A stretch of 17,775 bases of DNA from Delftia acidovorans NBRC 14950 (GTDB taxonomy: Bacteria > Pseudomonadota > Gammaproteobacteria > Burkholderiales > Burkholderiaceae_C), in NCBI RefSeq assembly GCF_001598795.1, contig NZ_BCZP01000047.1, forward strand, positions 1-17,775. Direction: 5' to 3'. How positions within the stretch are numbered: position 1 is the first letter of the stretch; every line of letters starts with the position of its first letter. The position numbers and the translations under genes are program-made. Of this stretch, positions 13,487 through 17,775 are shown piece after piece. The notes under the pieces are model-generated. The model searched no databases and was not told where the DNA came from. It was given only the letters and a program-made list of their open reading frames with translations.

Positions 13487-13625
13487 GCTGCTCAGCTTCC
13501 AGCCGATCCCGTATGCCCCGCTTCATGCGGGCGTACAGGCTGGAAGCACGGAACCGGCGCCTGTCGCGCAGGCGCTGCACGGACTCAGGAATGGGGCCGC
13601 CAAAGCGGTATCGCTGCTCAGCCAT
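13398..13625 (-). CDS. Small Arg-rich hypothetical protein coupled to the cro-like gene; the 3' end overlaps the convergent gene
   Basis: The ATG at 13623-13625 is preceded by AGGAGG and overlaps the cro-like stop. It begins MAEQRYRFGGPIPESVQRLRDRRRFRASSLYARMKRGIRDR. G/C bias at third positions is lost over the last ~30 codons, where it overlaps 13271..13486. Confidence 0.4.
   Translation of the reverse strand: MAEQRYRFGGPIPESVQRLRDRRRFRASSLYARMKRGIRDRLEAEQPTSGRALGTRLAFLSEPAPSRPAGCPPAA
13495..13547. other. Long imperfect hairpin (about 20 paired positions) between the cro-like and CII-like genes
   Basis: gcttccagcc (13495-13504) pairs with ggctggaagc (13538-13547). An inner stem pairs gtatgccccgc with gcgggcgtac around the loop ttcat. 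Confidence 0.6.
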
Positions 13626-13875
13626 GGGTGGCCTCCTGGATCTGGGGGGTGGTGGGTTGCGCCAGCTCGGGCAGAGGGGCGTCGCCGTACAGGTGATCGA
13701 ACGTCAGCACCAGCCCTAGCCCGCCTGCGTACTCGATGAGCCGCCGCGCACGCGGGGTGGGCATCATCTGCCCGTGCTCGTAGTAGCCAATGTTCCCCTG
13801 GGTGCAGCCGATGACTTGGCCGAGCGCCTGCTGGGTGAGGCCAAGACGCTTGCGAATGGGCTTGAGGTTCTTCAT
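13618..13875 (-). CDS. Cro-like XRE-family HTH protein
   Basis: It begins MKNLKPIRKRLGLTQQALGQVIGCTQGNIGYYEHG and is divergent from the CI-like gene. The ATG lies 7 nt after the -10 element, so the mRNA is probably leaderless. The track start at 13887 falls inside the -10. Confidence 0.8.
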   Translation of the reverse strand: MKNLKPIRKRLGLTQQALGQVIGCTQGNIGYYEHGQMMPTPRARRLIEYAGGLGLVLTFDHLYGDAPLPELAQPTTPQIQEATHG

Positions 13876-13882
13876 GCCCAAT

Positions 13883-13921
13883 ATCATAAGTCGGACTGAT
13901 AACTAATTCAACAGTCCGACT
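13883..13921 (-). promoter_or_regulatory. PR-like promoter with two 9-bp palindromic operators AGTC(C/G)GACT
   Basis: The minus strand reads TTGAAT (13906-13911), a 17-nt spacer, then TATGAT (13883-13888). The operators lie at 13889-13897 (in the spacer, touching the -10) and at 13913-13921 (1 nt upstream of the -35). Confidence 0.75.
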
Positions 13922-13958
13922 GTTTTGAATTCATGAGCCCTACTAATACCCTCAGTGA

Positions 13959-14480
13959 ATGCCCGCTTTGCCCCTGACCCTCGAACAAAAAGAAGACGCC
14001 GCGCGCCTGAAAAAACTCTTTCTGACCTGGAAGACGGACCGCAAAGCCCGGGGCGAGCCCGCGTCTCAAGACGCCTTCAGCGACCTGGTGGGCATCACTC
14101 AAAGCGCCGTCAGCCAGTACCTGAACGGCGCCATCCCACTGAACCCCGCTGCCGCGGCGAAGTTCAGCAAGGTGCTCGGCTGCCAGATCAGCGAGTTCAG
14201 CAGCACTGTTGCCAGCCTGGCCAGCGAAATCGGAGAGGCGGCAACTCCGATGGCGTCGAGTGATTCGCCTCCGCGCATGGACATCACAGAGCTGTCCCGA
14301 GCGGAGGCGCAGCTTGTACTGACGTTCCGCGAACTACCCGAATCAGCCCGGGATCAACTCGCGGCCTTCGCCGGCCAACTCCACAAGGAGTCGGGCACCA
14401 AAGCTCAGCGCGCGGCCACGGCGCCGAAGCCAGCAGCCGCGAAGCGTTCTCGCAGAGTGGCCGAGCCAGCCGACCACTAA
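13959..14480 (+). CDS. Lambda-CI-like repressor: N-terminal HTH domain and no S24 peptidase domain
   Basis: LKKLFLTWKTDRKARGEPASQDAFSDLVGITQSAVSQYLNGAIPLNPAAAAKFSKVLGCQISEFS parallels the lambda CI N-terminal domain. The C-terminal ~80 aa lack the Ala-Gly and Ser-Lys peptidase motifs. There is no SD sequence, and ACTAAT lies 11 nt before the ATG. Confidence 0.8.
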   Translation: MPALPLTLEQKEDAARLKKLFLTWKTDRKARGEPASQDAFSDLVGITQSAVSQYLNGAIPLNPAAAAKFSKVLGCQISEFSSTVASLASEIGEAATPMASSDSPPRMDITELSRAEAQLVLTFRELPESARDQLAAFAGQLHKESGTKAQRAATAPKPAAAKRSRRVAEPADH

Positions 14481-14719
14481 ATTACCGCTCGACCAGCGCC
14501 CAGTACGTGCGGAATTTCATCCCAGTTGAGAACCGGGACCAGCTGAGTAGATCGCCGCCTGACCAACGCGCCCAGCGCCACCAGGTCTTCGATCTCCTCC
14601 GGCGTCAGCTTTGGGGACAGCTTCGCCACCACCTCCGCATACACGTCGATCACGAAACGGGGCTTGGGAAGCGGCCCGTTGTGCTCCTTGATCATCTCGA
14701 TCAACTGCGCTGCATCCAT
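14477..14719 (-). CDS. Hypothetical protein (80 aa), second gene of the SOS-box operon
   Basis: The ATG at 14717-14719 is preceded by AAGGAGGA. G/C bias at third positions is strong in this frame. Its stop overlaps the CI-like stop codon (14477-14480). Confidence 0.65.
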   Translation of the reverse strand: MDAAQLIEMIKEHNGPLPKPRFVIDVYAEVVAKLSPKLTPEEIEDLVALGALVRRRSTQLVPVLNWDEIPHVLGAGRAVI

Positions 14720-15005
14720 TTGTCCGATCCTCCTTGACCGCCTCTAAGCCGCGGGCTTGTATCAACTCCCCTATCGCAAGCTGCCGATAGGGCTCACCGA
14801 AAAGCAATGTGTGCGCACAGGCACAACACATCGCCGCCAATCCAGCCAGCTGGTGCGCTGTGGGCGAGCTCTCGCCCCGCTCCCATTTGGAGATGGTCTG
14901 GCGCGTAACCTGCAGCGCTTCAGCCAAATCATCCTGTGACAGCGTCACCTTCGTGCGGGCTGCCTTCAGTCGTTGGCCGAACAGCTTCTTTGAATCGTGG
15001 TTCAT
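14517..15005 (-). CDS. XRE-family HTH protein; 3' boundary doubtful
   Basis: ORF 14517..15083 trimmed to the ATG at 15003-15005. The HTH core is LFGQRLKAARTKVTLSQDDLAEALQVTRQTISKWERGESSP. The frame stays open about 200 nt into the next gene, but there it lacks G/C bias at third positions. Confidence 0.6.
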   Translation of the reverse strand: MNHDSKKLFGQRLKAARTKVTLSQDDLAEALQVTRQTISKWERGESSPTAHQLAGLAAMCCACAHTLLFGEPYRQLAIGELIQARGLEAVKEDRTNGCSAVDRDDQGAQRAASQAPFRDRRVCGGGGEAVPKADAGGDRRPGGAGRVGQAAIYSAGPGSQLG

Positions 15006-15179: not shown

Positions 15180-15219
15180 AGCCGGACTGTTGACTTTTTT
15201 TATAAGTCCGACTGATAAT
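15180..15219 (+). promoter_or_regulatory. PL-like promoter with the same operator layout as PR
   Basis: TTGACT (15190-15195), an 18-nt spacer, then GATAAT (15214-15219). Operators are AGCCGGACT at 15180-15188 and AGTCCGACT at 15205-15213, in the same positions relative to the -35 and -10 as at PR. Confidence 0.7.
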
Positions 15220-15315
15220 TCATCTCAGCGCACCACAGACAGGTTGCGCTGGGCCAAGTGATCGGACCGAGCCCCTCCCCTGGATCCTTAAAAAATGAGA
15301 GCGGATAGAAGAGGC

Positions 15316-15783
15316 TCAGTGTGCAAGCTTTGCGGCAAGGCGCTCCAGCAGGGTGACGTGAGCAAAGTCCTTGGAATCCCTGTACCCCATCTCCATGCGA
15401 GCCATGTTGGTCGCGGGGTTAGCCAGCCAAGTCAGTCCGGTTTCGCCTTCGCGCTGCAGGCGAATGATGGCGGTGTTCAGTTCGTCATCTTTTAGACGAC
15501 TTTCCTGCTCACGAAGCTCCAAAAATTTGCACTTCATCTGCTTGAAGTGCAACTCCTTGGTTGTTGGGTTTAGCAGGAGCGAAACCAGGGCACATGCAGC
15601 AGCCACGGCACTGGCGATACCCATGGCCGTCGGGTACTGACCAACTACGGCAGCTACAGCAGAACACCCTGCCACGAGTTGCACGAAGTTGGTCCAAAAG
15701 GCGGTTCGCCGATGCAACACCTCTTGGAGGCAGTTGTACCAGTAGCCATACCGCACCGCGTGAATTAAGAGATATCGCTCCAC
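15316..15783 (-). CDS. 2-TM membrane protein with a C-terminal coiled-coil region; SLATT-like topology (tentative)
   Basis: 155 aa with a GTG start. The two hydrophobic helices are FWTNFVQLVAGCSAVAAVVGQY and AMGIASAVAAACALVSLLL, followed by KELHFKQMKCKFLELREQESRLKDDEL. The gene lies antisense to, and downstream of, the PL-like promoter. Confidence 0.6.
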   Translation of the reverse strand: MERYLLIHAVRYGYWYNCLQEVLHRRTAFWTNFVQLVAGCSAVAAVVGQYPTAMGIASAVAAACALVSLLLNPTTKELHFKQMKCKFLELREQESRLKDDELNTAIIRLQREGETGLTWLANPATNMARMEMGYRDSKDFAHVTLLERLAAKLAH

Positions 15784-16415
15784 GTTGAAATGCCTTTCTT
15801 TTCCGTCGGCGGTGGCGATGGAGGCGCGCTTGGCGGAACTTGGGTTTTGACGTTGCCAACTTCACTGTTGGTGATATTGCGCATGGGGCCCCTTCTGTTT
15901 GAAGTTTGTGACGTAGGAAATCCAAATGTAACGCAGCAAGCGGGCCCCACCCTCTTCTATCCGCTCTCCCAAGAGATAGCGTAATTGCCAGTTGCAGGGC
16001 GTCCAGCAGCCGGCGCGGGTCAATCCCGTCCCCCATCCTGCGTTATGCAGCCAAGGGCAAGCCGAAGGCCTACGGGCAGGAGGCACGCGGAAAGAAGTGC
16101 AACGCGTGAGACCAGAGCACTGCCGAATCGATGCCGGCGAAAGCATCCCAACCAGGCAGCCACGCGCTGCGAAGGAGAGCACATGCGAGATTGATAGGCC
16201 GGCAGACCCGGCCGCGACTTGGCCGCGCAGTCTCGCGGACATGCGATAGGCGAGTTACCGGGCATGGAGCCATCAGGCACCGGGTACTTGGGAGTGGCGA
16301 CCCCTCAACGCAATCAGTGAAGCCATAGCATGAGACCGGGAAACCGGCGCCGCCCCGAGCGTCATCGGGGCAAACCAAGGGGTTCAGCGCCAGCTGCAGA
16401 GCCACTTGGTTTGAA

Positions 16416-16482
16416 GTCGCGTGCACCCCCTCGGCGGGGTCGGATCTGCAAAAGGTTTGGTGCACACCAGCGACTCTTTTTT
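16416..16482 (+). terminator. Intrinsic terminator inside the non-coding tract
   Basis: gtcgc-gtgcacc (16416-16427) pairs with ggtgcac (16459-16465) and gcgac (16470-16474). TCTTTTTT follows, with the T run at 16477-16482. Confidence 0.55.
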
Positions 16483-16613
16483 CACCCACGGCGAAACCTG
16501 AGCCGCCAGAACGCTCAGGGATCACCCATGGAGGCCGCCATGTAACCGCACCTGCACCACAGAGCAAAGAGTTGATTTTGGGTTGTCCGCCCTGGCGACA
16601 TAAAAGGCCAGGA

Positions 16614-16726
16614 CCATCAAGAAAGAGCGCGGCACTGAAAAACTGCAACCGGGCGTGGAGCAAGGCAATCCGAGATGCCTCCACCGACAAACCGCAAACC
16701 GGGTGATCCGCTCTTTTTCTTGATGG
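16614..16726. repeat. 16-bp inverted repeat closing a 113-nt domain
   Basis: ccatcaagaaagagcg (16614-16629) is the reverse complement of cgctctttttcttgatgg (16709-16726), apart from a 2-nt TT bulge. Confidence 0.85.
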
Positions 16727-16970
16727 CAAATCGTGACAGGTACTTGCCCACCTGCAACCAGTGAAAGTCTGGCGCTTACACGCAGAGGGAAAGCCGGGGC
16801 GAACACGGCAGCCATCAATCCTCATCCCAGTTTCGCCGGGCCAGGGCCTTCACCACCACGCCATCTCTCCCTTGCGCGCCGCCATGCGGCACCGGCCTTT
16901 GTTCACGTCTCGCCCGCACCTCGCAGGCGTTTTGCTTTCGGCCCGATGCGGCCACAACCGGAGATCCCCC

Positions 16971-17657
16971 ATGGAAATCAAGATCGAATTGGACCTGCCC
17001 GCAATCGTCGCCCAGGCCGTCAGCGCCGAGCGCATCCAACCCATCGTAGACAAGGCCATTGCAGAAGCGGTCAAGGATGCAATCAACGATGCCACCGGCT
17101 ATCGCAGCAAGTTCCGCGATGCCATGAAAGAGCAGCTCAGCGAAGCCATGCCGCACGGCCTGCGGATTGATGACGTTGCCAAGTTCCAGCAGGTGCTCAA
17201 TGCAGCGGTTTCCAGCGCGGTGCAGGGCGAGAACGCGAAAGCCGTTCAGACGGCCATCTCGACTGCCGTGGGCACCTTCATGCCGGATCTTCCCTCAAGC
17301 ATCAAGTTGTCGGAATTGCTGCAGAGGGCGCGCAGCGGATTCCACAAGGAATCGCACGAAGCCTTCTTTGCTGAACTTGAAATGAGCGAGTTCAGCAGCG
17401 GTGGCGGCTGGCTTTCGCTTGACGACGACGAATCGCGACGCTACGCGCACTCCGCATCCATGAGGCTCGGGTTTGGCGATGACGGGCACGTCTTTTCTCT
17501 CCGGCTTGACGACAAGCTGGTAACGCCGCTGAGCATGCCCAACGCGGTTGGCGAGTTTGACGCCATCCTGCTCGCGCTGTACGTCGGTCGCACTACCCTG
17601 GAAATCGACATGGATGAGCACGACGTCAAGTCCGCCGCCAGCGAGCAATACGACTGA
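16971..17657 (+). CDS. Hypothetical protein (228 aa), first gene of the early-left operon
   Basis: ORF 16761..17657 trimmed to the ATG at 16971, preceded by GGAG 8 nt upstream. The upstream part of the ORF has junk-like composition. No family was recognised. Confidence 0.7.
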   Translation: MEIKIELDLPAIVAQAVSAERIQPIVDKAIAEAVKDAINDATGYRSKFRDAMKEQLSEAMPHGLRIDDVAKFQQVLNAAVSSAVQGENAKAVQTAISTAVGTFMPDLPSSIKLSELLQRARSGFHKESHEAFFAELEMSEFSSGGGWLSLDDDESRRYAHSASMRLGFGDDGHVFSLRLDDKLVTPLSMPNAVGEFDAILLALYVGRTTLEIDMDEHDVKSAASEQYD

Positions 17658-17724: not shown

Positions 17725-17775
17725 ATGCTGAGCTACGTGAACATCCACGGGCGGCCCGTGAGCGTCGCCCCCCCC
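17725..17775 (+). CDS. 5' end of a further plus-strand gene (17 codons, runs off the window)
   Basis: The ATG at 17725 is preceded by AGGAGATCCGC, the same RBS context as the 16971 gene. Translation so far is MLSYVNIHGRPVSVAPP. Confidence 0.4.
   Translation, partial: MLSYVNIHGRPVSVAPP

Follow-up and report, generated by a model that had tools for sequence, protein, structure and literature searches.

Introduction

To our knowledge, control of transcription elongation by RNA alone is known from very few systems, with the put RNA of phage HK022 serving as the model. This RNA acts in cis: it binds the zinc-binding domain of the β′ subunit of RNA polymerase and thereby suppresses terminators. 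The immunity RNAs of P1/P7 (c4) and P4 (CI) are small structured RNAs originating from the leader of the immunity-region operon, and those of P1 and P4 are released from their leaders by RNase P. The put RNA of HK022 has a size of approximately 70 nt, forms two stem-loops, and occurs just after PL and approximately 270 nt after PR (PMC9378689).

Here, we describe the early-operon leader of a lambdoid-type prophage in Delftia acidovorans NBRC 14950. The entire 17,775-nt stretch of DNA that was analysed is referred to as the window, and related loci are given as L numbers. As with put, a lambdoid early operon has a structured RNA in its leader, terminators lie downstream of this RNA, and no antiterminator protein gene is found nearby. 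However, a conserved element of this leader, motif F, is a four-helix junction of approximately 97 nt that occurs once per phage and has terminators upstream as well. A hairpin (C) and the adjoining stem t1 also form two stem-loops as in put, but the second one is terminator-like. An initial annotation of this DNA had considered a put-like but much larger RNA; the anatomy that defines put (PMC9378689) is not present here, leaving a functional analogy only. As such, put is the closest one, and any action of F on RNA polymerase is putative.

Other known systems are more distant. At approximately +57 of the PL transcript, the leader harbors a putative boxA-like element (GGAUCCUUA) that resembles in sequence the boxA of lambda-type nut sites and of rrn operons. 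Unlike lambda-type nut sites, it has no adjacent boxB-type hairpin (the nearest hairpin has a 12-nt loop) and no N-like gene. In contrast to the P1/P7/P4 immunity RNAs, F gave no match to the Rfam C4 models, and its surroundings yielded no complementary target boxes. The leader shares with GOLLD and ROOL RNAs that it is noncoding, highly structured, and prophage-borne; it differs from them in lacking a model match and in consisting of shuffled small modules rather than one conserved large fold.

Results and Discussion

Genomic setting of the leader

The early region of the prophage and its surroundings comprise the following features:
minus strand of the window: genes for capsid, ClpP-like protease, portal, large terminase, DnaB-like helicase, and a CII-like regulator
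13618-13887, minus strand: cro-like gene
13959-14480, plus strand: cI-like gene, diverging with the cro-like gene from a region with operator-like repeats
15190-15219, plus strand: PL-like sigma-70 promoter, TTGACT-18-GATAAT, with operator-like repeats AGYCSGACTG on its flanks
16960-16973, plus strand: GGAG ribosome-binding site and ATG (16971) of a 228-aa early-left gene (phrog_2600)

The region separating the cro-like and cI-like genes (13888-13925) and the surroundings of the PL-like promoter (15181-15216) share operator-like repeats, AGTCCGACTG and variants thereof, as expected if a single repressor controls both. The previously proposed position of the tract between a PL-like promoter and the early-left genes is thus supported by the promoter itself and by operators corresponding to those of the cro/cI region. 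The same DNA is present in two 6.8-Mb chromosomes, GCA_000741825.1 and GCA_016127415.1, in which small genes, a gene for a ParB-like protein, and a DNA methylase gene lie downstream of the 228-aa gene.

On the minus strand (14477-15005), the interval from the cI-like gene to PL contains an XRE-type HTH gene together with an 80-aa gene. The HTH reading frame continues over the 80-aa gene in a different frame. The pair may represent a frameshift or overlapping genes and possibly constitutes a second regulator or an addiction module.

The leader is noncoding and contains locally stable structures

The region from 15994 to 16970 is a noncoding, untranslated structured leader on the plus strand that extends between the PL-like promoter and the ATG at 16971. 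We place high confidence in this structural conclusion, i.e., that the leader is noncoding, folded, and read from the plus strand. It is composed of the following elements, listed together with the conserved leader start and an insertion:
15226-15294, plus strand: module P, the conserved leader start, containing the boxA-like GGAUCCUUA at 15282-15290
15295-15968, minus strand: inserted cassette enclosing a 2-TM gene, absent in L005 and outside the RNA modules
15994-16160, plus strand: module A, found by nhmmer in only three related loci
16160-16351, plus strand: module B, a conserved block with hairpins, including a GAAA tetraloop hairpin at 16336-16347
16352-16371, plus strand: C hairpin, G-CCCCGA / GCGUCA loop / UCGGGG-C, covarying
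16372-16413, plus strand: t1, terminator-like stem AAAC...GUUU (AAACCAAGG/CTTGGTTT), directly 3' of the C hairpin
16415-16482, plus strand: t2, branched intrinsic terminator with a 13-bp interrupted stem, an inner hairpin, and CUUUUUU
16483-16590, plus strand: module D, with hairpins at 16497-16519 and 16527-16543
16591-16612, plus strand: H1 hairpin, CCTGGC/GCCAGG
16614-16726, plus strand: H2, a long hairpin with the base CCAUCAAG/CUUGAUGG
16721-16817, plus strand: motif F, a cloverleaf-like four-helix junction (P1-P4) of approximately 97 nt
16835-16903, plus strand: G-core, Y-shaped, with the outer helix GCCGG/CCGGC, hairpins a and b, and a U-rich run
16911-16938, plus strand: t3, canonical intrinsic terminator, 32 nt before the start codon

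Over 16040-16820, the G+C content of the three codon positions is nearly equal (spread of approximately 0.03-0.12, single windows ≤0.20), compared with a spread of 0.3-0.4 in the flanking genes. A 251-aa ORF (16070-16825, minus strand) has no Pfam match. In the 78%-identical homologue L005 it is disrupted by indels that are mostly not multiples of three (1, 2, 6, 10, 26, and 39 bases), and only fragmentary ORFs occur there. As a protein-coding gene, this ORF fails with respect to codon-position composition, retention in homologues, and family match. A missed or decayed gene in the tract was similarly rejected on account of the flat codon-position G+C, the L005 indels, and the missing Pfam match. 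These results agree with the view of the initial annotation that the tract holds no credible gene; codon-periodic conservation, named there as an observation that would speak against an RNA, did not emerge, as the codon signal is absent and the ORF is not kept in homologues. On the plus strand, no ORF with a coding signal was found between 15226 and 16971, and thus no N-like protein is encoded there.

Gene calls for some public assemblies (e.g., GCA_000741825.1) and for two Logan assemblies include the 251-aa ORF, the loci concerned being L143, L145, and L146. This gene call within the RNA region is most likely false, and the public annotation is corrected in this respect.

With Rfam 15 covariance models at gathering thresholds, no match was obtained in the whole window; at E ≤ 10, the sole match within 15500-17200 was a chance hit to mir-305 at 15519-15560. 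ARAGORN identified no tRNA or tmRNA in the whole window, and a phage BLASTN search gave no match to the tract. The Rfam scan, which had been proposed together with the remark that the tract could not be matched to RNase P, tmRNA, group I or II intron cores, or common riboswitches, yielded no family. F, the G-core, and the unit of C hairpin and t1 are absent from Rfam 15, while structured phage early-operon leaders as a general kind are already known.

All stems and repeats noted previously were recovered at the positions given, among them the GAAA tetraloop hairpin (CCGG-GAAA-CCGG, 16336-16347), the stem CACGCG/CGCGTG (16084-16108), the repeat TCACCCAYGG (16482-16491 and 16522-16531), and the two copies of ACATGCGA..GATAGGC in the tract. 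Compared to shuffled sequences, the folding energy of the whole tract is not exceptional (z = -0.9 on the plus strand and -0.4 on the minus strand), so that its richness in stems alone is no more than expected of a G+C-rich sequence. Local segments deviate more strongly from the shuffles, with z = -3.6 for 16330-16415, z = -2.2 for 16414-16490 (t2), and z = -4.2 for 16588-16730 (H1 and H2). The description of the tract as packed with RNA-like stems hence applies to these segments and not to the energy of the tract as a whole. Likewise, of the region 15784-16970 originally considered to be structured, the part from 15994 onward was confirmed, whereas the first ~210 bases (15784-15993) belong to an inserted cassette.

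The orientation of the leader is indicated by several features. The U-runs of all terminators are on the plus strand, and the genes flanking F are co-oriented with F in all loci. Three or four terminators are located between PL and the first early-left gene, without a protein gene in between.

The leader is a mosaic of modules

Related loci were gathered via the neighbouring 228-aa protein, DNA patterns in IMG/VR, GTDB genomes, and metagenomes, and the presence of modules was scored by segment-by-segment nhmmer searches. The tract turned out to be a mosaic, as Delftia and Comamonas prophages combine modules A to G in different subsets. L022 has B, C, F, and G and L037 has C, F, and G, both without D; L035 has C, D, F, and G; in L005 and L043, modules A to F are followed by an additional minus-strand ORF and then by G. 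The mosaic junctions fall at the ends of F and at a repeated GCCATCA. In the leader, modules that fold separately are strung together, and recombination among Delftia/Comamonas prophages has shuffled them. The earlier notion of one large structured RNA had to be abandoned, since homologues hold different subsets of modules and solid covariation is confined to C, F, and G.

Module P is 94% identical in L004 and L005, where it is joined directly to module A, and is also present in L051 downstream of an unrelated promoter. An RNA structure in module P was considered and rejected, as the variants in relatives are, in our reading, not compensatory. The boxA-like site in module P (15282-15290, approximately +57 of the PL transcript) compares with GGCUCCUUG in Aquifex and UGCUCUUUA in Escherichia coli by resemblance only, and reads GAUCUCUAACAA in relatives. 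The boxA changes C6U and G9A have been reported as tolerated, and GGAUCCUUA differs at one position from the variants reported as tolerated (PMC3177189).

Modules A and B are conserved only among close relatives that are too alike to provide more than minimal covariation evidence. For the hairpin at 16084-16108 in module A, L005 retains the stem while the loop is replaced. A helix in module B changes from TACCGG/CCgGGTA to TACCAG/CTgGGTA in relatives, with the tip swapped. No deeper MAFFT alignment of modules A and B with other leader types was obtained.

In 3 of 10 related loci scanned, the leader contains a match to the Rfam motif RF02917, Burkholderiales-2, at 80-85 bits (threshold 67.9 bits, 74-position model), on the strand opposite to F:
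L035, 1830-1902: Burkholderiales-2
L127, 2931-3005: Burkholderiales-2
L128, 4535-4609: Burkholderiales-2

In each case, F follows in the same leader at a distance of 0.5-1.3 kb. The window itself has no match and carries module A in this position. Rfam models the motif opposite to the operon strand, and counts of wobble pairs provide one argument each way. Our literature search found no discussion of the Burkholderiales-2 motif; this orphan motif is now placed in a prophage early-operon leader.

Twelve phages (L016, L018, L021, L023, and others) have two conserved genes 0.1-1.2 kb upstream of F, where they separate t1 from the H1-H2-F unit. They encode a 111-aa protein without a family match and a 163-aa HTH protein. 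The window holds t2 and module D in their place.

C hairpin, terminators, and the hairpins preceding F

The C hairpin keeps its loop while one stem pair varies between C-G, U-A, and A-U among relatives. The stem t1 retains the AAAC/GUUU base and its pairing with four unrelated stem interiors. Folding of t1 on the plus strand yields 41 G.U pairs compared to 12 on the complement, an excess that fixes the strand as plus. In other phages, the unit of C hairpin and t1 is also found 3' of ORFs and upstream of the conserved 111-aa gene.

The internal terminator with a long-range helix that had been noted before was confirmed as t2 (AGTCGCGTGCACC...GGTGCAC..GCGACT followed by U6), and its relatives score as terminators as well. 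In comparison, t1 and the G-core are only terminator-like, as the U-run is partly inside the stem or the stem is branched. Module D, H1, and H2 each display single compensatory changes relative to related loci. In L005, the module D hairpin at 16497-16519 changes from CCTGAGC/GCTCAGG to CCTGCGC/GCGCAGG. In the H1/H2 segment, the stem extension covaries as AAG/CUU, CAG/CUG, and CG/CG. The base of H2 and helix P1 of F both use UGAUGG, and the two helices are thus mutually exclusive. This competition is absent in loci without H2.

Motif F and the G-core are supported by covariation

The structure of F was derived by RNAalifold on 15 variants, and the resulting covariance model was then used for searches. 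Matches were obtained in approximately 45 IMG/VR contigs and at least 21 metagenome contigs. A pattern scan of 185,579 GTDB species representatives gave mostly chance matches and five real ones, a lower bound, as an exact pattern was needed. The latter were found in Delftia acidovorans, D. tsuruhatensis, Comamonas avium (twice), and a Burkholderiaceae MAG. Among 54 distinct F sequences, 95.7% of cells are paired, and seven covarying pairs have both sides changed in a total of 77 cells; one pair in P2 is found in the four forms AU, GC, UA, and CG. The observed covariation score was not reached by any of 500 shuffles, and sliding the partner by 1-3 columns lowered pairing to 22-48%. Compensatory changes in homologues, the check that had been suggested initially, are therefore strong in F and were also found in the G-core, the C hairpin, and t1. 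Approximately half of the F positions lack a pairing partner and nevertheless hardly vary. The P3 loop UGARAGU, which is closed by a G-C pair, has, as we read it, the form of a T-loop.

F is the sole module common to all loci, partly because later searches were aimed at F; yet L009 retains the G region and the 228-aa gene and lacks F. The motif is conserved in phages that differ in repressors, operators, and immunity regions, as would be expected if its partner is a host factor. Its distance from PL ranges from 0.6 to 1.5 kb across phages, and in many of them two ORFs precede F. The window contains a single F, 1.5 kb from PL within 17.8 kb, and no second copy in the PR operon. Across loci, F is followed by mutually unrelated genes. 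No promoter-like site was found next to F, and the candidate idea of an own promoter for F was dropped.

Two loci carry F in duplicate. L012 has two tandem, diverged H1-H2-F copies (1560-1810 and 1898-2110) between early-left genes; in the first copy, P2 differs, but P3, P4, and, with one C-G to U-A change, P1 are retained. In L133, two F copies are 2.3 kb apart.

Two further pairings were considered. For a kissing interaction of the P2 loop GCCC with the P4 loop GGGC, only C-to-U changes and zero double changes were observed, leaving it unproven. Pairing of the C/U-rich G-core loop with the F segment AGAGGGA was rejected, as L105 and L127 lack AGGGA and yet keep the loop.

The G region (16818-16970) follows F, with a gap of 4-12 nt between F and the G-core in the simplest loci. 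Hairpin a of the G-core has a conserved 25-30-nt, G-less, C/U-rich loop, CUCCUCCCUCCCUC; hairpin b is variable. The loop of the window's own G-core, CCUUCACCACCACGCCAUCUCUCCC, is poorly conserved. Among 14 variants, 96.9% of cells are paired, with four covarying pairs. On the plus strand, the G-core has 10 G.U cells versus 3 A.C cells, and this excess, as in t1, supports the plus strand. In approximately 32 of 46 related loci, a strong terminator immediately precedes the next gene, at a distance of 90-230 nt from F. Approximately nine loci have an ORF after F without a clear terminator, and several have terminators on both sides of the F/G unit.

Possible functions of the leader

From this arrangement, we infer that the leader may act as a cis-acting attenuator/antitermination cascade, a reading to which we give slightly less than an even chance. 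RNA polymerase starting at PL would meet three or four terminators in the leader, and the early-left genes would be reached only by polymerase that is resistant to termination. Such resistance could be signalled by two candidates, the boxA-like element (+57) and the conserved F/G unit; the latter may target the polymerase itself or the two terminators downstream of the unit. Since t1 and t2 are located upstream of F, F cannot be what carries the polymerase past these two. A role like that of putL/putR is countered by the occurrence of F once per phage, its absence from the PR operon, and its variable distance from PL. Further points against the cascade are the approximately nine loci without a clear terminator after F, the two ORFs that precede F in many phages, the absence of F from L009, the lack of H2/P1 competition in some loci, the minimal covariation in modules A and B, and the opposite strand on which Burkholderiales-2 is modelled. 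The anatomy is nearly as compatible with a trans-acting sRNA or with a processing element, and our confidence in the mechanism therefore stays below one half.

The modules may instead be trans-acting sRNAs cut or terminated from the leader, with F and the G-core forming a phage sRNA of approximately 190 nt whose G-less C/U-rich loop pairs with the Shine-Dalgarno sequence of target mRNAs and whose U-run ends the transcript. We regard this as possible, if on the whole unlikely. It agrees with a G-core that ends in a U-run and displays the conserved 25-30-nt CUCCUCCCUCCCUC loop, with the 4-12 nt separating F and the G-core in the simplest loci, and with the terminators that enclose the F/G unit in several loci; many conserved unpaired bases, as in F, are typical of RNAs with protein or RNA partners. 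However, no promoter-like site was found upstream of the F/G unit, the corresponding loop of the window (CCUUCACCACCACGCCAUCUCUCCC) is poorly conserved, and no target was identified, the complementarity of CCUCC to any ribosome-binding site being trivial.

F could also be, though improbably, a processing module that separates the leader from the early-left mRNA, in the form of a new self-cleaving ribozyme or of a tRNA-like RNase P substrate. Its cloverleaf-like layout, with a 7-bp closing helix and three hairpins, the nearly invariant unpaired half of its bases, and the T-loop-like loop would be in line with this role, as would the two copies in L133, the tandem diverged copies in L012, and the release of P1/P4 immunity RNAs from their leaders by RNase P. 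However, F gave no match to Rfam ribozyme, tRNA, or C4 models even at E ≤ 10, ARAGORN found no tRNA or tmRNA, and a cleavage site cannot be inferred from the sequence.

A riboswitch-like sensor gating the downstream terminators is very unlikely: such a role would suit the compact junction of F with its conserved unpaired bases, the alternative pairing open to the P1 strand in H2, and the terminators that follow, but the genes after F are unrelated to one another, the terminators are 90-230 nt away, and the competing strand is upstream of F and missing in some loci. Equally remote is a DNA-level function (recombination linkers or protein binding sites) or a decayed or missed gene as the cause of conservation; despite mosaic junctions at the F ends and the repeated GCCATCA, and despite the public annotations listing the 251-aa ORF, compensatory changes in four-helix and Y-shaped folds and a G.U excess on one strand are unexpected for duplex DNA sites, and the ORF is not conserved and has neither a codon signal nor a Pfam match.

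The F/G unit might represent a new class of functional RNA that works without a dedicated protein, either an RNA that renders RNA polymerase resistant to terminators and has an architecture unrelated to put or a new self-cleaving ribozyme, although we consider this rather doubtful. If true, Comamonadaceae prophages would use the F/G RNA to gate entry into the early-left operon. The combination of a covariation-supported motif outside Rfam, a clear setting (PL, terminator chain, early genes), and culturable hosts (Delftia, Comamonas) makes the mechanism accessible to direct experiment.

An inserted cassette and variable tracts in the leader region

In the window, module P is separated from module A by a 670-bp cassette; in L005, the two modules are joined directly. 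Perfect 18-bp inverted repeats (15297-15314 and 15951-15968) bound a 636-bp segment that holds the following gene:
15316-15783, minus strand: 2-TM gene, 155 aa, weakly SLATT-like

SLATT_1 is a 2-TM effector domain of conflict systems. The match of the 2-TM protein to SLATT_1 (E = 0.007, 16.9 bits) is below the cut-off of 26.3, and the protein also matches two PHROGs without assigned function. In IMG/VR, only one distant homologue was found, at a locus without RNA modules, and the cassette is missing from nearly all relatives bearing the RNA modules. Given this separate insertion of the cassette and its absence from nearly all of these relatives, no consistent link exists between the 2-TM protein and the modules. 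The RNA is therefore not a partner of this protein, as had been speculated at first. The cassette could be a mobile or invertible element; alternatively, the arms of the inverted repeat could pair in the PL transcript and loop the insert out of the leader.

Within the 2-TM coding sequence, at the site of the chance mir-305 match (15519-15560), a strong hairpin is located between an A-run and a U-run and could stop transcription either way, including PL transcripts running antisense through the 2-TM gene.

The length of a C-run at the leader start differs among relatives (window 15270-15281, CCCCTCCCC, versus approximately 12 C; L051 3560-3575). A second variable C-run is located at the start of the gene that follows the 228-aa gene (window 17765-17775; L052 approximately 1000-1012). 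Both may be slippage-prone tracts.
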